Positions 2,505-57,371 of a stretch of 64,000 nt of DNA are shown here, piece after piece. How positions within the stretch are numbered: the first letter of the stretch is position 1; each line of letters opens with the position of its first letter. The notes under the pieces were generated by a model. That model saw nothing but the letters and a program-made list of their open reading frames with translations, was not told the origin of the DNA and searched no databases. The position numbers and the translations under genes were made by a program. The stretch comes from Minisyncoccia bacterium (GTDB taxonomy: Bacteria; Patescibacteriota; Minisyncoccia; SW-4-49-11): assembly GCA_044356325.1 (NCBI GenBank), contig JBIKWJ010000001.1, positions 152,992 to 216,991 on the forward strand, read 5' to 3'.

Positions 2505-2536
2505 TCACTTAATTGTGAATAAGATGAGATACATCG

Positions 2537-2745
2537 TAGATAAGTTGTGAGTTATGTAGAGGGTGACCTTTCAGTCACTTTTGTCCCCCTTTGGAGGGGG
2601 GAGCCTGAAAGGCGGGGGTGGATAAAATACAAATGTAAACTCTATCTACCTCCGGCCTAATGGCCACCTCCTCCCTGCCTACCGCAGGCAGGCAAAGGAG
2701 GACAATTTCTATAACAATTTACAGTTTTTAGGCTAATAATTTACA
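2537..2745 (-). mobile_element. GC-rich MITE-like repeat, copy A (reverse orientation, diverged, one TIR recognisable)
   Basis: About 55% GC in a roughly 30% GC genome. Shares the core cctgcctaccgcaggcagg and ccccc-tttgga-ggggg hairpins and the terminal aagatgagatacatcgtagata with copies at 11841, 28197 and 34291. Confidence 0.6.
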
Positions 2746-2807
2746 GCAACACTTTTTGCCTAAGATATCTTCATCTCATACTAAGTATATACAAAATATC
2801 AAAAATA

Positions 2808-2816
2808 TGCTATAAT
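2808..2816 (+). promoter_or_regulatory. Extended -10 promoter element TGCTATAAT upstream of tRNA-Ser
   Basis: TGnTATAAT lies 12 bp upstream of the tRNA 5' end. The same 9-mer recurs upstream of five other genes in this window. Confidence 0.55.
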
Positions 2817-2827
2817 ATACCTCATTA

Positions 2828-2916
2828 GGAAGTGTGGCTGAGCGGTTGAAGGCGGCAGTCTTGAAAACTGTTGTAGGGTTACACCTACCAGAGGTTCGAA
2901 TCCTCTCACTTCCGCA
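2828..2916 (+). tRNA. tRNA-Ser (anticodon UGA)
   Basis: Cloverleaf readable by eye. Acceptor ggaagtg/cacttcc, anticodon loop cuUGAaa, long variable arm, T-loop GGTTCGAATCC. Confidence 0.85.
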
Positions 2917-2922
2917 TAAATC

Positions 2923-2960
2923 CCATATATTAGAATTTATTCTGATATATGGGTTTTTTA
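2923..2960 (+). terminator. Rho-independent terminator after tRNA-Ser
   Basis: Hairpin cccatatat...atatatggg followed by TTTTTT. Confidence 0.55.
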
Positions 2961-3100
2961 TTTGGAGAAGTGAAGGGAGCAATAGCATTGCTCCCGTGGG
3001 GATGAGAAAGTCGCAGCCCGGTGTGAGTTTGTGCTAAGCACAAGGCGAACACAGCGAGACGGGGTCGCGGAAATTTACCGTCAGGAAAATTATCTGTGAC

Positions 3101-3119
3101 CGAATCCTCTCACTTCTGC
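3101..3119 (+). repeat. Duplicated 3' end of tRNA-Ser(UGA), attR-like
   Basis: cgaatcctctcacttcTgc matches the tRNA T-arm/acceptor 3' segment with one mismatch, 184 bp downstream of the intact tRNA. The intervening DNA is GC-rich and hairpin-rich. Confidence 0.6.
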
Positions 3120-3202
3120 TGAAGTAAAAAGTAGATAGTTTTCTTAACTGTTTATACATCTTTTATTTTATATCTAATTTTCCCACGATGTATTCGTCCT
3201 AT

Positions 3203-3230
3203 TGAATAAGATGAGACAGATCGTAGACAA
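3203..3230 (+). repeat. Solo terminal inverted repeat of the GC-rich MITE-like family
   Basis: ttgaataagatgagacagatcgtagacaa matches the element termini, but no element body follows. Confidence 0.45.
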
Positions 3231-4255: not shown

Positions 4256-4834
4256 ATGTATCAATACAATAAAAGCAAAAGGGGTAAACTACTTTCTTTT
4301 GGGAGTGAACATCTTGTTTACTCCTATGATATTGATAAAGTAATTAAATTTTCTCTTATTCACTTTTTTTACGGCAAAAAGAAGGGGCTTGAATGGGCTC
4401 ATAAAGAGCTTGAAATAAGTAAAAAATATTTTGGTGAATTCCTTTTAAATACTGAAATTGTCATTTCGCAAAATAAGAGCTATATTGCACAGCTTCAACC
4501 AAAAATTATCGGACATCATCTGACGGGAAAAGATCTCGATAATGAAATTTTGTATCAGCAATTCTTAAAAATTATTGATGGCTATCAGCAAATGTGTAAA
4601 GATGGACAACCTGAAATTGATTTAATAGGTCAAAAAGGTGTTTTTAAAAAATGTATGAGTAATATATTTGTTTTGAATAATAATCAGCTAGTCATAATGG
4701 ATGCGACATTATTTAATACTAAATGCCCTATTATTCTCAAGCCAATAATTACTTGTCTTCGCTACCTGGTTTTACCAATACAAAATCGCAGAATAAATCA
4801 GTTCCTGGCTCAAAAAGGTAATCAAATAAACTAA
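4256..4834 (+). CDS. Hypothetical protein, possibly a small atypical kinase-like fold
   Basis: 192 aa. Gly-rich GSEHLVY region and a DATLFN segment weakly resemble small sugar/lipid kinases. It lies next to a glycosyltransferase. Confidence 0.35.
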   Translation: MYQYNKSKRGKLLSFGSEHLVYSYDIDKVIKFSLIHFFYGKKKGLEWAHKELEISKKYFGEFLLNTEIVISQNKSYIAQLQPKIIGHHLTGKDLDNEILYQQFLKIIDGYQQMCKDGQPEIDLIGQKGVFKKCMSNIFVLNNNQLVIMDATLFNTKCPIILKPIITCLRYLVLPIQNRRINQFLAQKGNQIN

Positions 4835-4848
4835 AGAGAAAACTGTAT

Positions 4849-6054
4849 ATGAAATCAAAGATTAATCTCGTCATTATATCACATGCCTATGTCTATTCTG
4901 CCTATAGAGCTAAAATTGAGGCTTTATCAGAATATCATGATCTCAATATCACCCTCATTACACCGGAATTTGGATTAGAAGGTGGTGGACAAAAAGTATA
5001 TGCTGAGCAATATGAGGGTAAACAATATCACCATATTATATTATCAGGATATTTTACGGGGAAATTAAACTTTTTTGTATTCAAAAATCTCAAATCAACT
5101 CTACAATCTCTTAACCCAGGTATTATACTTTTGGAAGAAGAATATTGGACTCAAATTGCCGCTCAGGTGACATATATTACGAAAAGTTTCTTCCCCCAAA
5201 CCAAGCTTATATTATTATCACAAGAGAATATTTGTCATATTTGGGAAAAAGAGGCAGAAACTCTCTATCAAAAATTTCGCTATACTTCATTTCACTTTAT
5301 TGAGAAATATGTCCTATCAAGACTTGATGGGCTTATATTCCAATTCCCTGAAGTATGGCAAGATTTTGAAAATCGTGTGAATGCTCTAGGTTTCAAAGGA
5401 AAACGAGGTATACTCCCTCAACTTGGAGTTGATTATAATAGATTTGCTGATAATTCACCCAAATTACAAGAGATAAGAACAGAATTAGAGCTTGATGATA
5501 ATACCTTCATATATGGCTATATTGGGAGAATTACTCCAGAAAAAGGTATTGAAGATATGATTCATGCCTTTGAGAATTGGGATAAAAATAATACTAAACT
5601 CATTATTATTGGGAATGGTGATACTGAATATGTAAATCAAATCAAGCAACTGGTACAGACATTAAAACTTGATGATATTGTCATATTCAAAAATGCTATC
5701 CCCTTTGAAGATATTCCTGCTTATTTTCAATTATTCAATATTTCTCTCTTACTCTCTCATACCACGCCTATTTGGAAAGAACAATTTGGACGAGTTTTGG
5801 TAGAGTCTATGGCAGCTGGAACTCCCGTTATTGGTTCAGATAGTGGGGCTATTCCCTTAGTTATTGGGGATACAGGCTATATTGTAGCTGAACAAAATAT
5901 ACAAGCTATTAGACAAGCTTTAATAGAGACAATTGAGAATAAAAAGAAATATACTCTATTATCTAAGTTAGCGCAAGAGAGAGTAAACACAGAATTTTCT
6001 TATGAGGCTATTGCTCGTAAAACCTATAATTTTATTCAAGAGATTTATAAATAA
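4849..6054 (+). CDS. Glycosyltransferase, GT4 family
   Basis: 401 aa. C-terminal GRITPEKGIED...ESMAAGTPVIGSDSGAIP is the characteristic GT4 donor-binding region. Confidence 0.8.
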   Translation: MKSKINLVIISHAYVYSAYRAKIEALSEYHDLNITLITPEFGLEGGGQKVYAEQYEGKQYHHIILSGYFTGKLNFFVFKNLKSTLQSLNPGIILLEEEYWTQIAAQVTYITKSFFPQTKLILLSQENICHIWEKEAETLYQKFRYTSFHFIEKYVLSRLDGLIFQFPEVWQDFENRVNALGFKGKRGILPQLGVDYNRFADNSPKLQEIRTELELDDNTFIYGYIGRITPEKGIEDMIHAFENWDKNNTKLIIIGNGDTEYVNQIKQLVQTLKLDDIVIFKNAIPFEDIPAYFQLFNISLLLSHTTPIWKEQFGRVLVESMAAGTPVIGSDSGAIPLVIGDTGYIVAEQNIQAIRQALIETIENKKKYTLLSKLAQERVNTEFSYEAIARKTYNFIQEIYK

Positions 6055-6583
6055 CTTTTTTATCTTTATAAATAGCTCTAAGAAAAGCTTTGCCTTGTGA
6101 ATCTAATTCAATACGAGCTATAGCTCCCGTAAGTGAGTCTGTCTGTAAAACAATATCTTCTATTCCATATTTTATAGTATATACTGGAGGCTCTCCTGAT
6201 TCTTTATTAGCTTCTTTAATACTCATTACTTTTCCCTGTATTATAGGGTCTTTGGTATCCATAGGATATTCTTTAGAACCTTTTATAGGTACATAAACTT
6301 TACCCCCATATTGGTTGAGTGTAATATATACAATATCGTCAATTTTAATATCCGTAGTATTTACCTGATATGGATCGGATTGATAATCATAATTATATTG
6401 AAATACATATTCTTGAATAGTATTAATTGCAAAATATAATGCATCCTTTTGATTCTCGGTATTATTGATTGGTATATATACTGTTCTTATTTGATCTCTT
6501 TTTTGAGTATAAAAATAACTAAATAAGCCTAATATAATTATTAATTGTAATATCAGTACTAATACTATTGTTTTAAATTGCAT
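6032..6583 (-). CDS. Secreted or N-terminally anchored hypothetical protein
   Basis: 183 aa with one N-terminal hydrophobic helix. Last gene of a three-gene membrane operon. It could correspond to the GDYXXLXY-type partner of DUF2157/DUF4401, but the motif is not clearly present. Confidence 0.4.
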   Translation of the reverse strand: MQFKTIVLVLILQLIIILGLFSYFYTQKRDQIRTVYIPINNTENQKDALYFAINTIQEYVFQYNYDYQSDPYQVNTTDIKIDDIVYITLNQYGGKVYVPIKGSKEYPMDTKDPIIQGKVMSIKEANKESGEPPVYTIKYGIEDIVLQTDSLTGAIARIELDSQGKAFLRAIYKDKKVIYKSLE

Positions 6584-6586
6584 ATA

Positions 6587-7675
6587 TTAATTATCAATAC
6601 TTGCTAATACATTACGCCTTATTCTCTCAAGAAAATATCCTGTAATCAAGAATACTATTCCTAAACCTAAGAAAAATATACTTCTATCAAGCTCTGTTTT
6701 CTCAACCCAATCAAAATATCTTACTAAAATAAATCCAAATAATGCTAATATACTGAGATTCAATCTCCATATTTCTTTTAATTTATAGGCACTATATAAT
6801 AACCATAATACCCCTATGAGAAAAATACTATTGAGGGAGATAATATGTGGTAATATCTCCCTATTTTTATCAGCTAGAGTAGCAACATCATAAAAATAGG
6901 GTTGATTAGGGTCATATAATACTGGGACTTTTGGTAAAAATATTACAAACAAAGCTCCAGCAAGTCCAATCAAAATTCCAATACCTTGATACAAATCAGA
7001 TTTAATTTTTTTCCAAGCACTTATACTGCTTATACCAAAAACTGCTATAACCCCTAATAATATGATAAGTGTTTTAGGATTATTCCAAATGGTAATAGCA
7101 GTAGTATTGGTAATAGTCTCCCAAATATTCCTTGAACTAAATGCTCCCAATACAAAACTGAGAATTCCGAGTCCTAAAACTCCAATCAAAGTAAGTACTG
7201 TATAATAACGCTTATTGCGAGATTGTTCAAAAAAAGTAAATGCTATAGTATAAAGACTTGCAGATAATAAAAAGGCAACAATAAAAGATATGCTTGTATC
7301 TACTCCATTTTGGGAAGCCACCTGATAACTTCCAATAATGACACCTAATAAGAATTCTATTATTCCAACAACAAATACAAGAGGACTATGTTTTCGATAT
7401 CCAATAATAGCCGTTATAATACCTCCTATTACCGCAAAATAATACCAGCCAATAGGGATTTTTAAGACCTGGCTTATAGCATAAATACCCACAAGTCCCA
7501 ATATAAGAGATATACCGAGAAGTAATTGTCTTATCAAATCATCCCATGAAACCGCAATAGAGAATGTAGCCTCAGCAAATGATCTTTGTAGGCTAATTAA
7601 ACGAACCAATATAATAATACCTCCTATAATGAGGGTAAATATTATAAATGGGATAAGTATAATAAATATTTCCAT
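6587..7675 (-). CDS. Polytopic membrane protein (DUF4401-like by architecture)
   Basis: 362 aa with at least 9 predicted TM helices. Tightly packed between the two other membrane ORFs. Confidence 0.45.
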   Translation of the reverse strand: MEIFIILIPFIIFTLIIGGIIILVRLISLQRSFAEATFSIAVSWDDLIRQLLLGISLILGLVGIYAISQVLKIPIGWYYFAVIGGIITAIIGYRKHSPLVFVVGIIEFLLGVIIGSYQVASQNGVDTSISFIVAFLLSASLYTIAFTFFEQSRNKRYYTVLTLIGVLGLGILSFVLGAFSSRNIWETITNTTAITIWNNPKTLIILLGVIAVFGISSISAWKKIKSDLYQGIGILIGLAGALFVIFLPKVPVLYDPNQPYFYDVATLADKNREILPHIISLNSIFLIGVLWLLYSAYKLKEIWRLNLSILALFGFILVRYFDWVEKTELDRSIFFLGLGIVFLITGYFLERIRRNVLASIDN

Positions 7676-11426: not shown

Positions 11427-11774
11427 TTATAGAATACGTTTTTTCTTTTTAGGAATTACCTTACTTAAGGCAACTCCCAAATCATCATTCTCGTCGGAAT
11501 TCTGAGATTTAGATGAATTTTTCCAAGAAGATACAATTTCAGAAATATTACCAATAGCTGAGGTAATACCAGAAATGGAAGTAAGATTAGTTTTTAATTC
11601 AGTGGCAGTATCTACTGCCAAATCACCTAAATGTAAAGCCTTATCAATAAGATTCCGTATTGCATCAATACTTTTCTTTACATCGAGTAACATAATTAAT
11701 AAAACCAATAATAATAGACCTATTTCCATTAATATAATTGCATAGAGACTCAAAATAACTTGCTCCGTAATCAT
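11427..11774 (-). CDS. Small membrane-anchored protein (DUF948-like)
   Basis: 115 aa. N-terminal TM followed by a coiled-coil-like region. Confidence 0.4.
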   Translation of the reverse strand: MITEQVILSLYAIILMEIGLLLLVLLIMLLDVKKSIDAIRNLIDKALHLGDLAVDTATELKTNLTSISGITSAIGNISEIVSSWKNSSKSQNSDENDDLGVALSKVIPKKKKRIL

Positions 11775-11840
11775 AATTTTTTATTTTATACTATATCAAT
11801 ATATTAGCATATCATATCATATTGTCAATTAACATTATGA

Positions 11841-12125
11841 AATGAGGAGATCGTAGACAAAAGAGATTATTATACATTACTATCCTACCGGCCGTAGCTT
11901 TGTACAAAAAGTGTCCTCCTTTGCCTGCCTGCGGTAGGCAGGGAGGAGGTGGCCGTCAGGCCGGAGGTGGATAGAGTTCAGGTCTTTATCTTATCCACCC
12001 CCGCCTTTCAGGCTTCCCCCTCCTAAGGGGGACAAAAGTAATAATTCTTTTGTTACGACAATATATGCGACTGTAAGGTCGCCCCTACACAACTCATATA
12101 ATGTCTACGATGTATCTCATCTTAA
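11841..12125 (+). mobile_element. GC-rich MITE-like repeat, copy B (full length, both TIRs)
   Basis: Left end gagatcgtagaca and right end tgtctacgatgtatctc form imperfect TIRs. The body is nearly identical to copy D at 34291-34572. It sits between divergent promoters. Confidence 0.65.
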
Positions 12126-12152
12126 TTCAAAATATACATATACCCCCCAATA

Positions 12153-12161
12153 TGCTATACT
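12153..12161 (+). promoter_or_regulatory. Extended -10-like element TGCTATACT upstream of the 12200 operon
   Basis: Preceded by a cccccc box, as at 4121 and 27301. 39 bp upstream of the ATG. Confidence 0.4.
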
Positions 12162-12199
12162 TATTATATTGATAAAATAGATCTCAAATACGAATTTCC

Positions 12200-12937
12200 A
12201 TGATTAAATCTCTATTCACAAAGAAAATTATTATCATATCTAGTGTTGTTCTGGTATTGTGTTTAGGAATAGCCTATATCCTATTAAAGCCCGACTCTAA
12301 ACCTAAGCTCACACCTATAGATGAAGGCTTAGCCCCAATTCGAATTATCCAAATTAAAGATGGTAAAGAACAAGAAGTTAATTTTACTGAGTCAGGTGCT
12401 GAAATTATTGCAAGTGCCCTTTTTTCTGCCAATCCTTTTGATGAACAAGTACAACAAGGGGTACAAAGTCTTGGGATTGACCGCATAGATTTACCTCCTC
12501 TTCCAGAAAATCAAATTAAAGTTATCAATAATCCAGAAAATCCACAAACAGCAATTGAAAAATATTTAAAAGAAGTATATACTATATTCAAGGATAATAC
12601 TATCCAGCTTAATATAAGTCAGCTCTCTGAAGAAGCTTTGGATGGAAAAACACAAAATATTCAATCCCTACTTCACACTAATACTGATTTATATCGTTCA
12701 TTGTTCACAATAGAAGTACCCCAAGATGCATTAAAACTTCATAAAGGATATATCCGTGTCGCCCAAATACAAAATAGTTTTTTATTGGGATTATTAAATG
12801 CAAGCTCTGACCCGTTAAAACTTGATATCAATAGCAAAATTAGTGTATCTCTACTCCAAAAGATTGATGTGCCGATAAAAGAGGAGCTACAAAGTATCAG
12901 AAAAAAATACAATATCATATACCAAAAACAATCATAA
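12200..12937 (+). CDS. Membrane-anchored extracytoplasmic protein, unknown function
   Basis: 245 aa with an N-terminal TM anchor. First of five tightly linked genes. Confidence 0.45.
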   Translation: MIKSLFTKKIIIISSVVLVLCLGIAYILLKPDSKPKLTPIDEGLAPIRIIQIKDGKEQEVNFTESGAEIIASALFSANPFDEQVQQGVQSLGIDRIDLPPLPENQIKVINNPENPQTAIEKYLKEVYTIFKDNTIQLNISQLSEEALDGKTQNIQSLLHTNTDLYRSLFTIEVPQDALKLHKGYIRVAQIQNSFLLGLLNASSDPLKLDINSKISVSLLQKIDVPIKEELQSIRKKYNIIYQKQS

Positions 12938-22516: not shown

Positions 22517-22561
22517 ATTTGAATATAATTATATCATAAACCTAACCTTTCTGCAAGATAT

Positions 22562-26862: not shown

Positions 26863-26889
26863 TGGCGGAGAGAAAGGGATTACGAACCC
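26863..26889 (-). repeat. Duplicated 3' end of tRNA-Ser(GCU) including CCA, attR-like
   Basis: tggcggagagaaagggattacgaaccc matches the tRNA T-arm and acceptor with a 1-nt indel. 171 bp separate it from the intact tRNA; the intervening DNA is GC-rich. Confidence 0.6.
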
Positions 26890-27059
26890 GTCGCAAATGG
26901 GATTTGCTCCCCTTTCCTATTTCGAATCTAAAACTTCCTTCAAGATTTCATACATCGCATGTATGATAGCAAAATCCCCCGTGCAGGAAGGCAGCGAGGG
27001 ATTTATTCCCGAGTGTCGGAAACCGTAGGTGTCCGAGACGGGGTTGGGGGGGGATTTTG

Positions 27060-27782: not shown

Positions 27783-27825
27783 TTTATACTGATTTGTAAT
27801 TATTGATAATTTACATTATGAGATA
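27783..27825 (+). promoter_or_regulatory. Conserved 43-bp intergenic motif, copy 1 of 3
   Basis: tttatactgatttgtaattattgataatttacattatgagata recurs at 29454-29495 with 42/43 identity; a 22-bp core recurs at 27237-27258. Confidence 0.4.
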
Positions 27826-27847
27826 CCCTATTCCATAGAGTATATAT

Positions 27848-28135: not shown

Positions 28136-28196
28136 ATTAAGTGTTTTTTGCTATATTATAAAACTAATTCTAACCCATTTCTCCTATCCGTACAAT

Positions 28197-28490
28197 AGAA
28201 GAGATCGTAGACAAAAAAGATTACTATATATTATTAGCCTACCGACCATAGCTTATTACAAAAACTGTCCTCCTTTGGAGGAGGTGGCCGTCAGGCCGGA
28301 GGTGGATAGAGTTTAAGTTTGTATTTTATCCACCTCCGTCGCAAATAGGATTTGCTTCTGTGAAACCTCACGGTTTCCCAACCTTCCTTCACGGGAAAAC
28401 TCCCGTTTTCCCGACCCCTTTCCCAGACTTACAGTCTACCTTTCAGGCACCCCCTTCCTGCCTGCGGTAGGCAGGAAGGGGGACAAAAGT
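28197..28490 (+). mobile_element. GC-rich MITE-like repeat, copy C (left TIR only, with a nested ~105-bp insertion and a swapped hairpin module)
   Basis: Collinear with copies B and D, except for an extra segment at 28335-28439 and replacement of the ccccc-tccaaa-ggggg hairpin by ccccc-ttcctgcc-tgcggta-ggcaggaa-ggggg. Confidence 0.55.
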
Positions 28491-29420: not shown

Positions 29421-29453
29421 AACTTATATCAATATGTATATATTATATACCCT

Positions 29454-29495
29454 TTATACTAATTTGTAATTATTGATAATTTACATTATGAGATA
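29454..29495 (+). promoter_or_regulatory. Conserved 43-bp intergenic motif, copy 2
   Basis: Lies in the 90-bp gap upstream of the SDR gene. Confidence 0.4.
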
Positions 29496-29510
29496 AAATA
29501 TTTTTACTAA

Positions 29511-34238: not shown

Positions 34239-34290
34239 ATTAAAATAAATTATATCATATATTGACAATTGTTGCAAAGCTTTTTATGAG

Positions 34291-34572
34291 ATGAGGAGAT
34301 CGTAGACAAAAGAAATTATTATACATTACTATCCTACCGGCCGTAGCTTTGTACAAAAATTGTCCTCCTTTGCCTGCCTGCGGTAGGCAGGGAGGAGGTG
34401 GCCGTCAGGCCGGAGGTGGATAGAGTTTAAGTTTGTATTTTATCCACCCCCGCCTTTCAGGCACCCCCTCCAAAGGGGGACAAAAGTAATAATTCTCTTG
34501 TTACTACAATATATGCGACTATAAGGTCGCCCCTACGTAACTCATATAATGTCTACGATGTATCTCATCTTA
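34291..34572 (+). mobile_element. GC-rich MITE-like repeat, copy D (full length, both TIRs)
   Basis: Near-identical to copy B. TIRs are gagatcgtagaca and tgtctacgatgtatctc. It sits between the msrA stop and the NUDIX promoter. Confidence 0.65.
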
Positions 34573-34577
34573 TTCAT

Positions 34578-45938: not shown

Positions 45939-46937
45939 TTAAGGGAGATCTCTAATAGGACCAGTACCTGTTGGCCAGACACAGTTAACATTTATATGGT
46001 AGTTACCATTATAATCACCATAATTATTACAAGTCTCAGTCCCCCCAGGTTGAAATCCTTGTATACTAGAGCCTGGTCCAGCAGGTACTCCCCATACAGT
46101 TGAACAAATAGAACTTATAACTCCAGGGTCAGTACAGGCACCCTCAAAACCAGTTGGACCTCCCGCACAAGTATCCGCATATCCTGAGTAAGCTGTATAA
46201 GCTTGAGTTAATTCACATTTCCATATACCACTTCTCTTAACTGCGCTATAAGCAATGCCTCCACTCTGTGTTGCACCATTACACGATGTCCGGCTTCTAA
46301 GATTGTAAAGTGTATTACATCTAATCTGTGCTTCTGGTTGAGTTAATATTGGTGTTGGAGTTGGAGTTGGTGTTGGTGTTGGAGTTGGTGTTGGAGTTGG
46401 TGTTGGAGTTGGTGTTGGAGTTGGTGTTGGAGTTGGTGTTGGAGTTGGTGTTGGTGGAGTTAAAGAATTATTTCGTGGCATTGTAGTTGATTGCATTGTA
46501 ACTGTATCTTTACCATCTACAGATTTGGCTGTAATAACTACAGTCACTATAGTTCCTGGGCTATTATTATTTACTGAACTACCATCCCCAGCCTTAATAA
46601 AAAATCTAATATCCTCAACGGTAAATACACTAGAATCAGTATAGGCATTACCTGACTTATTGATAATATTGCCAGCTTTTGTATATACTACATTTGCACC
46701 ACTTTGATCTTTAAATGATAATGCACCTGATGCATTAATACTAAGATTCGATGAGGTTCTCAATTCTTTGTCCATCACATTCAAAACAAATTGCACATTA
46801 TCTCTTACATTATCACTTTGTTGAGAATCTCTTTGATATTTGATAATATTAGTAATAGGTTGGGCTACTACCAATACAATAATAGATAATATACCGATTA
46901 CCACTGTTAATTCTGTTAGAGTAAATCCTTTTCTCAT
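45939..46937 (-). CDS. Type IV pilin-like protein with a (TP)n linker and a Cys-rich C-terminal domain
   Basis: Prepilin leader MRKGFTLTELTVVIG is a class III signal. About 25 tandem TP dipeptides. The C-terminal roughly 130 aa contain 10 Cys. Confidence 0.6.
   Translation of the reverse strand: MRKGFTLTELTVVIGILSIIVLVVAQPITNIIKYQRDSQQSDNVRDNVQFVLNVMDKELRTSSNLSINASGALSFKDQSGANVVYTKAGNIINKSGNAYTDSSVFTVEDIRFFIKAGDGSSVNNNSPGTIVTVVITAKSVDGKDTVTMQSTTMPRNNSLTPPTPTPTPTPTPTPTPTPTPTPTPTPTPTPTPTPTPILTQPEAQIRCNTLYNLRSRTSCNGATQSGGIAYSAVKRSGIWKCELTQAYTAYSGYADTCAGGPTGFEGACTDPGVISSICSTVWGVPAGPGSSIQGFQPGGTETCNNYGDYNGNYHINVNCVWPTGTGPIRDLP
46351..46462. repeat. Tandem repeat (ggtgtt/ggagtt units, about 9 x 12 bp) encoding the (TP)n linker
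   Basis: Perfect 6/12-bp periodicity visible in the DNA. Confidence 0.8.
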
Positions 46938-46953
46938 ATATTTAATCCGCAAT

Positions 46954-47478
46954 CTATTTTTTATTAATATCAAATAATTCCATATCTGCTGAATATATTT
47001 TGGTCTTATTTAAATTCAAGTTTCTTACTATAACGGTACTTTTAACTTTTATTCTATCTAGATTAACTGTATCCGATTGTACGGTAATATAGCGATAAAA
47101 TATAGTACCAGCAGTACCCAAAATATAACCATTATTGCCATCTTGTATTAAAGAACAGGTATTATTCCAGGTAGTTGTACTACAAGTTGAAGTTAAGCTC
47201 AAACCATTTTGAATATTCGTTTTATAATCAACTACATATTTACCATCAGCCAATCCAGCATTCCATACTGCCCCTGGGGTAGTGTCATTAAGATTACTTT
47301 GATATATGGCTCTTACTATCTCTAATCCCTCGGACATCAATAAATTAGCAGTATTATCATATTGCTTATCAAACTTAGCTTTAATAATACCTACCTGTAA
47401 ATTTAAAAGTGGAATAAAGGTAATTAATAATATTGATATTGCAACCAATGCACCTACTAATGTGGCTCCTTTTTTCAT
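46954..47478 (-). CDS. Minor pilin-like protein (non-canonical, lacks Glu5)
   Basis: 174 aa. MKKGATLVGALVAISILL hydrophobic N-terminus after a basic leader. Sits inside the pilin gene block. Confidence 0.45.
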   Translation of the reverse strand: MKKGATLVGALVAISILLITFIPLLNLQVGIIKAKFDKQYDNTANLLMSEGLEIVRAIYQSNLNDTTPGAVWNAGLADGKYVVDYKTNIQNGLSLTSTCSTTTWNNTCSLIQDGNNGYILGTAGTIFYRYITVQSDTVNLDRIKVKSTVIVRNLNLNKTKIYSADMELFDINKK

Positions 47479-56961: not shown

Positions 56962-57047
56962 CGCAGGTCTATTATCAGGAGGAGAAAAGATATGATATAA
57001 TTACATCAAAGTTTATATAACTTTGATTAACAGATAAAAACACAGAG

Positions 57048-57371
57048 ATGGAAAGCACCGTAGACAAAGAATTTGTTTCATATATTGTCAAGTCAATTGT
57101 AGATAATCCTAATGATGTTCTGATTGAAAGAACCGTAGATGAAATGGGAGTATTAATAACATTACAAGTGAATCCTCGTGATATGGGTTATGTAATTGGA
57201 AAATCAGGGTCCACCGCTAAAGCTATTCGTTCTCTTCTCCGTATTGTGGGAGCTCGCAATAATGCTCGAGTCAATCTTAAAATCCTTGAACCAGAACAAG
57301 GAGCGAGAAATGAAACTCGATTAGCCAACTCAGAGGATATTAATAAAGCCGTAGATGATTTGGATCTCTAA
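57048..57371 (+). CDS. khpA: KH-domain RNA-binding protein (KhpA/YlqC-like)
   Basis: 107 aa. VIGKSGSTAKAIRSLL GXXG KH loop. Immediately upstream of trmD, as in many bacteria. Confidence 0.65.
   Translation: MESTVDKEFVSYIVKSIVDNPNDVLIERTVDEMGVLITLQVNPRDMGYVIGKSGSTAKAIRSLLRIVGARNNARVNLKILEPEQGARNETRLANSEDINKAVDDLDL

Follow-up and report, generated by a model that had tools for sequence, protein, structure and literature searches.

The GC-rich repeats found in the window, i.e., in the whole 64-kb stretch of DNA analysed here, very probably constitute a MITE family of bacteria of the candidate phyla radiation (CPR; Paceibacteria-like) that is mobilised in trans by an IS481-like DDE transposase. 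Tested against the criteria of known element classes, the repeats come out as a MITE family whose parent is IS481-like. The family is new in its host group, in its exact, oriented and promoter-proximal target, and in its nested cargo of GC-rich hairpins. CPR bacteria have tiny, gene-dense genomes, and the pair formed by the parent insertion sequence (IS) and the MITE follows an unusually sharp, oriented rule, N5 upstream of TTGACA.

That a GC-rich repeat family with terminal inverted repeats (TIRs) exists, as proposed in a preliminary description of the window, is borne out by repeat search and MAFFT alignment, which give four copies of the element (266-306 bp) and one solo end. The TIR pattern has five matches in the window when 0.18 are expected, the fifth of which (57046-57066, 3 mismatches) is probably due to chance. 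The copies are those described before, with their extents corrected from the sequence and from comparison with intact relatives. Copy A (11834-12129, plus strand) is full length with 296 bp, and consists of a left TIR at 11834-11859, a GC-rich core at 11912-12033 and a right TIR at 12102-12129, with a GCGAC..GTCGC hairpin at 12067-12082. Copy B (34283-34576, plus strand), also full length with 294 bp, has its left TIR at 34283-34308, its core at 34361-34481 and its right TIR at 34550-34576, and ends 1 nt short of the msrA stop codon (34578). Copy C (28189-28490, plus strand) is truncated and has, as stated before, only the left end, with a degenerate left TIR at 28189-28213 and a core at 28266-28489; the right arm and the right TIR are missing, and the internal insertion ascribed to it is a hairpin module of about 100 nt at 28339-28438. 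In the same copy the CCTGCC..GGCAGG hairpin (CCTGCCTGCGGTAGGCAGG, 28457-28475) is relocated into the loop of the last hairpin. The 28457-28475 hairpin is missing from the ~92%-identical ortholog in a Candidatus Paceibacterota MAG (L012), which is 90-95% identical and syntenic to the window at 27-33 kb; this places the window in a CPR genome of Paceibacteria-like kind. Copy D (2516-2782, minus strand) is diverged (~78%) and has an internal deletion of 29 nt; a single TIR had been assigned to it, and both ends are present, the right TIR at 2516-2542 and a degenerate left TIR at 2757-2782, with the core at 2583-2704. The solo right-type TIR (TGAATAAGATGAGACAGATCGTAGACA) lies on the minus strand at 3203-3229, where it had been reported, and is preceded by a second stretch, at 3183-3206, that resembles a TIR in degenerate form.

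The TIRs measure 26-27 bp rather than about 22 bp. They read TGAATAAGATGAG-ATAC-ATCGTAGACA versus T(T/A)TATGAGATGAG-GAG-ATCGTAGACA, match between the two ends at about 21/27 positions in the window copies, and are conserved over more than 40 copies. The GC content of about 55% given before applies to the cores (54-62%), and not to whole copies, which have 43-47% in a window of 33.7%. All window copies are intergenic, as described, have no ORF of at least 80 aa inside, and contain the GC-rich hairpins that had been quoted for them.

No cognate transposase is encoded in the 64-kb window, nor is one seen in the closest MAG in the 3 x 8 kb of it that were covered. The earlier conclusion that the repeats form a non-autonomous MITE family nevertheless holds, since the same TIRs flank a transposase-encoding IS elsewhere. 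The TIR pattern matched 67 metagenome loci, which carry no taxonomy and in which some copies are non-independent, and when the right TIR was used to search viral contigs, one contig (L013) matched. The transposase-bearing IS occurs on 14 of these loci, 13 from metagenomes and the viral contig, in copies that span 1101-1178 bp end to end (about 1.1 kb). In the viral contig one TIR is situated 63 nt upstream of a 344-aa ORF, and the second TIR overlaps the stop codon of this ORF. The 344-aa product has the Pfam domains rve, rve_3, HTH_32 and HTH_28, which makes it an rve-type DDE transposase encoded by a single ORF and with an N-terminal HTH. Its best NCBIfam family is IS481, with 193.1 bits against a cutoff of 224 and clearly ahead of IS3 (107.9 bits), and its identity to transposases annotated as IS481, that of ISKpn28 among them, is 31-34%. 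The parent is, in other words, IS481-like, and not of the IS630/Tc1 or IS5-like type that had been suggested for the cognate transposase.

The copy on the viral contig (L013:4650-5771; IMG/VR, 23.7 kb, classed as viral) is a complete parent IS with a perfect CCACA duplication, and it adjoins an unrelated rve-type transposase (6087-6980) and a 584-aa ORF, a putative terminase. Phages could act as carriers of the parent IS.

Most of the remaining loci with the TIR contain elements of 232-505 bp with a GC-rich core, and these include over 20 full-length copies that are distinct from one another. When such a MITE is compared with the closest IS (L030), the two have in common their 28-bp ends alone, with an identity of 100% for the right TIR and 89% for the other end. 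An origin of the MITE as a deletion derivative of the IS was ruled out, since the common part is confined to these ends, and the GC-rich interior does not derive from the IS. One IS copy (L038:227-951), with its two TIRs present, lacks transposase residues 158-286 (129 codons) through an internal deletion that keeps the reading frame; it is a non-autonomous derivative, separate from the GC-core MITE.

Consider now the signatures of transposition. The left end of the element reads 5'-TGTAYGAGATGAGG..ATCGTMGACA and the right end ..TGTCTACGATGYATCTCATCTTATTCA-3'; target-site duplications (TSDs) were scored outside the termini 5'-TGTAYGAGATGAGG... and ...CTCATCTTATTCA-3' in 33 unique full-length copies of IS and MITE together. 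A perfect 5-bp TSD flanks 10 of the 33 elements, IS and MITE both, when the permutation mean is 0.39 and the permutation maximum 4. When at least four of the five positions are required to match, the number is 14 of 33, against 1.6 expected. The units bounded by TSDs always contain the TIRs. The window copies have no TSD, with TTAAC/AAAAT at copy A, AGCTT/TTCAC at copy B and TACTT/CAATT at copy D, and their outer TGT is mutated to ATT, TTT or AGT (ATT in copy A). Defined ends and TSDs, which were to be looked for according to the preliminary description, are therefore present in the relatives, the TSDs with 5 bp, and in the window the TSDs are absent and the termini have decayed. Because they are without TSDs and have mutated outer TGT, the window copies look old or recombined, and most likely they are immobile relics reshaped by recombination. 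From this follows that the mobility of the family is inferred from the relatives, and not from the copies of this genome itself.

Insertion polymorphism is observed at two loci. In two metagenome loci (L034 and L074) a 457-bp MITE is located in register, 5 nt upstream of the -35 box of tRNA-Ile(gat), and the corresponding promoter in the window (about 22528-22561, with the site at about 22551-22561) is empty; the flanks in this comparison are about 76% identical and the junction is imprecise. Three other loci (L005, L025 and L040) represent one locus in three different states, each from a different sample, with the inserted block bounded by duplicated TATTA beside TTTGTCAA, which fits repeated insertion into a target that is left intact by insertion. 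Tandem arrays are also found, with ends 5 nt apart in L056 and as a tandem pair in L066, and these likewise agree with repeated hits on one site. The locus L022 was considered as a clean empty site for L052 and is unusable, as the site is rearranged.

The target of insertion can be read directly from the left flanks. TTGACA, with at least 5/6 matches and on the opposite strand, occurs exactly 5 nt from the left end in 17 of 41 independent left flanks, and at every other offset from 0 to 24 it occurs in only 0-1 of the 41. A full promoter with -35 and -10 boxes, the latter often TG-extended, is present in 24 of the 41, and no motif was found in the right flanks. Insertion of IS and MITE alike is thus confined to one orientation, in which exactly 5 nt separate the left end from a downstream -35 hexamer of the sigma-70 type. 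The five nucleotides (N5) between the element and the -35 box are the TSD, so that the promoter belongs to the target DNA and is not part of the cargo; with its left end at this short distance upstream of the -35 box, each element leaves the promoter intact and lies immediately upstream of it.

All four window copies are in this promoter register. To exemplify, copy A is preceded on the minus strand by a promoter at 11801-11828, with TTGACA (11828-11823), a 16-nt spacer and a TG-extended TAATAT, which drives the ORF at 11427-11774 and is separated from the element by the 5 nt 11829-11833. The promoter at copy B (34249-34277, minus strand) has TTGCAA, a 17-nt spacer and a TG-extended TATAAT; it drives the NUDIX gene, with a gap of 5 nt (34278-34282). 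At copy D, a promoter read from the sequence (2788-2816, plus strand; TATACA, 17-nt spacer, TGcTATAAT) belongs to tRNA-Ser(tga) at 2828-2915, again with a gap of 5 nt (2783-2787). Copy C has a TATAAT on the minus strand (28160-28155) in the usual register (5 + 6 + 17 nt) and a weak -35 box. The association with promoters that had been proposed for the copies is in this way retained, and the actual pattern is a strict register rather than a preference for divergent promoter regions.

The -35 box would be read either by the transposase or by a host factor bound to the promoter, and TTGTC(T/G)AC, a motif of the inner TIR, is similar to the target TTGTCAA. Targeting next to promoters would then serve as a safe haven in gene-dense genomes. 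Such a rule would explain how a transposon can persist where nearly any other insertion hits a gene, and, if true, promoters are safe havens for a transposon in the streamlined genomes of CPR bacteria. The rule also marks real promoters in genomes whose promoters are otherwise unmapped.

The core consists of two inverted half-modules of about 42 nt around an AT-rich loop, a design that is constant over 25 distinct cores. The half-module contains, in this order, a CCTCC/GGAGG hairpin, a small variable hairpin and GGRGGTGGAT, and the core is closed by the mirror image of the second half-module, which has at least three alleles. The half-module is nearly invariant, in contrast to the AT-rich arms, which diverge. 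Extra modules are nested at fixed places, and each of them is found either on the left side of the core or, as a mirror image, on the right side; they include a 19-nt CCTGCC..GGCAGG hairpin, a hairpin of about 33 nt, a long version of the small hairpin and a chain of about 100 nt. Our best guess is that the core would be a palindromic cargo, selfish or neutral, which gene conversion reshuffles among the copies. Another possible role is that of a hairpin roadblock, by which the targeted promoter would be shielded from transcription that comes from upstream.

A stronger form of the latter proposal is that the host keeps the elements as insulators or terminators upstream of its promoters, which is compatible with a MITE origin and, on balance, rather unlikely. 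It would account for the fixed position immediately upstream of promoters and for the placement of copy B, which has the msrA stop codon on one side and the NUDIX promoter on the other. On the minus strand of the window subfamily, a CCTCC-AAA-GGAGG hairpin is followed by ACACTTTTTGT, and the terminator scan marks, on the same strand of copies A and B, a GCGAC..GTCGC hairpin whose tail is rich in T; the order of terminator, hairpin modules and promoter in a CPR MAG (L009) points the same way. T-runs after the hairpins are, however, restricted to the window subfamily and missing from the most active one, half of the window copies lie between divergent genes where no read-through arrives, and the 5-nt register together with the TSDs is explained by target choice rather than by selection. 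Intrinsic termination as the main function of the element was set aside as well, as a hairpin of 5 bp in the right arm is all that the terminator scan picks up. A joint reading, in which a promoter-homing IS481-like transposase recognises the -35 box or the RNA-polymerase-bound promoter and carries an insulating hairpin cargo that is useful or tolerated, is conceivable and put forward tentatively. As a part of it, and with the same reserve, the hairpin modules would assemble themselves, by insertion targeted to loops or junctions or by gene conversion.

Next, consider the folding of the core, which bears on whether the element is the gene of a structured non-coding RNA, with the hairpin chain as its product and the inverted ends as a closing helix. 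Both strands fold far better than shuffled sequences, with z-scores of -6.6 and -7.0, and the region is GC-rich within an AT-rich genome. Over the 25 cores, a chain of local hairpins has 97.2% of its cells paired. Double changes that preserve the hairpin affect three pairs, most of them in hairpins G and H, and other hairpins can take the place of hairpin E. In 32 of 44 cores, the plus strand has a slight advantage in stability and more G-U pairs. These properties, and the near invariance of the half-module next to diverging AT-rich arms, are what speaks for an RNA gene. Against this, the two strands fold about equally well, and the double changes in G and H reduce to two allele-level swaps, with the third represented by a single sequence, in a set of related sequences. 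Modules occur, moreover, in both orientations and at mirrored positions, the ends are common to a transposase-encoding IS and flanked by TSDs, copies are polymorphic among relatives, a consistent promoter or terminator is not seen in the elements, and Rfam gives no hit. An RNA gene is therefore a very unlikely identity for the element. With this evidence, the swapping of hairpins is no proof of the selection at the RNA level that had been suggested from it: the compensatory-change check does yield hairpin-preserving double changes, and these are allele swaps, module replacements or single occurrences. The local hairpins are maintained, and this can take place at the level of RNA or of DNA alike.

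Two other structural proposals were rejected. A single long helix that closes the first arm with the last has 91.7% of its cells paired, with two positions that fail in 16/25 and 24/25 of the cores, and the long-range fold predicted for the plus strand was dropped in favour of the local hairpins (97.2% versus 91.7%). The assignment of an RNA strand from stability and G-U content was likewise abandoned, since the signal is too weak, and composition and relatedness act as confounders. In line with the earlier suggestion of an undescribed family, an identity as a known ncRNA or riboswitch is ruled out, since there is no match in Rfam: with the whole window at the gathering threshold only five tRNAs are found, and with 11780-12200 at E values up to 10 there are only sub-threshold hairpins of microRNA type, with 11-23 bits against cutoffs of 48-108.

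The core also occurs outside the MITE. It is found with other ends, of the type TTTCGTAG, in four loci (L001, L002, L007 and L010), and half-modules occur alone in intergenic regions of the CPR MAG L009. Because cores occur with other ends and as lone half-modules, the cargo is partly independent of the MITE; it has a life of its own, outside what the MITE model explains.

In two intergenic regions of this MAG (L009:3010-3190 and 4720-4940), an intrinsic terminator, GC-rich half-modules and a TGCTAYAAT promoter follow each other in that order. Here the half-module keeps a constant distance to the -10 box, and a TIR of the IS481 type is missing.

With this partial independence in mind, one may regard the core as a system of the REP/BIME/REPIN type, spread by a RAYT-like tyrosine transposase, to which the IS481-type ends were added secondarily, by capture or insertion. 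The core is indeed an inverted doublet of palindromic units of about 42 nt, and one of its modules reads GTAG + GGGCGACC..GTCGCC, where GTAG followed by a palindrome is what we take to be the hallmark of REP sequences. Cores and lone half-modules without the IS481-type TIR, with several filled intergenic regions in L009, and the recurrence of modules next to tRNA genes would also be accounted for. The main half-module, however, is without GTAG; every core in the window is attached to an IS481-type left end in the promoter register; the units bounded by TSDs invariably include the TIRs; and a search with a crude regular expression for an ORF with HUH...Y-x-x-N-P in about 600 kb of window and loci found none. 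A RAYT-driven origin is for these reasons highly improbable, and a MITE family with an IS481-like parent is the reading that is kept in what follows.

The repeats are not confined to the window, in line with what had been expected of a mobile family. In a scan of species-representative genomes the invariant core motif was found at 12 loci in six MAGs, which are Paceibacterota, Parcubacteria, Saccharibacteria or CPR-type bins, so that the core occurs in CPR MAGs only; the other evidence of wider occurrence is the TIR at the metagenome loci. Searches for the core in viral contigs and for the element in a phage collection gave no matches. In a full-text literature search, no such MITE or intergenic repeat family described for CPR bacteria was found, an absence that does not amount to proof of novelty.

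When the parent IS is compared with known systems, it is closest to the IS481 family (IS481, ISKpn28), with which it shares a single rve-type DDE transposase with N-terminal HTH, a length of about 1.1 kb, ends that start with TG(T), a short TSD, and an ORF whose 3' end runs into the left inverted repeat. Deletion derivatives like the internally deleted copy in L038 are also found in the IS481 family. The parent IS differs from the family by an identity of only 31-34% and a score below the curated cutoff, and by its target, which involves a 5-bp TSD, N5 upstream of TTGACA, and one orientation. IS481 itself has a 6-bp NCTAGN target. The interior of the MITE is unrelated to the IS.

The likeness to Correia elements that had been pointed out is valid as an analogy and nothing further. 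Like the MITEs, Correia elements are short, bounded by TIRs with ends of about 26 bp, intergenic and often near promoters, and they fold into hairpins and have several size variants. No sequence relation to the Correia TIR consensus is apparent, and the TSD of the MITE family is 5 bp of variable sequence, unlike that of Correia elements, which duplicate TA. We know of no GC-rich modular core and no fixed -35 register in Correia elements. Mosaics of intergenic hairpin units in variable number and orientation are likewise formed by BOX in S. pneumoniae, by BIMEs and REPINs in enterobacteria and pseudomonads, and by ERIC. The inverted doublet of the core is REPIN-like, and its size variants from insertions at fixed internal positions are ERIC-like. 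The family does not belong to any of these classes. Unlike all of these, the present mosaic lies within IS481-type TIRs with TSDs, its units are unrelated to theirs, and the crude regular expression found no RAYT. The GC clusters in yeast and fungal mitochondria, finally, resemble the cores as GC-rich palindromic modules in an AT-rich genome, and differ from them in host and mechanism. Mitochondrial GC clusters are polymorphic between close relatives and nested in non-coding DNA. Gene conversion between copies explains the hairpin modules equally well as independent mobility does, and the modular core is a clean case for distinguishing maintenance at the DNA level from maintenance at the RNA level in hairpin mosaics of AT-rich genomes.

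A different group of GC-rich inserts, of about 120-200 nt, is found directly after tRNA genes. In the window they occupy 2916-3125 (plus strand) and 26863-27058 (minus strand), with Ser-tga and Ser-gct as the tRNAs; elsewhere they are found at L066:1581-1738 and L004:4330-4498, with Lys-ctt and Gln-ctg. Each of them ends in a direct repeat of the last 19-45 nt of its tRNA, starting from the T-loop. Three have a conserved body in common (GTGTGAGTTTGYGCWAAGCRCAAGGCGAACAC ... ACCGTCAGG hairpin), in which two hairpins show compensatory changes, and the insert at Ser-gct has modules common to the MITE cores. Searches of Rfam and of the viral contigs with these inserts gave no hit. They resemble miniature elements that have integrated, or remnants of att sites.

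Two further repeats were observed in the window. One is a 12-nt tandem repeat (GGTGTTGGAGTT, about 13 units) at 46311-46468, within the minus-strand ORF 45939-46973, where it would encode a short low-complexity peptide repeat. The other is a pair of AT-rich stretches of 50 nt at 27783-27832 and 29453-29502 (TTTATACTRATTTGTAATTATTGATAATTTACATTATGAGATA), which are 92% identical and may be a shared promoter or operator.
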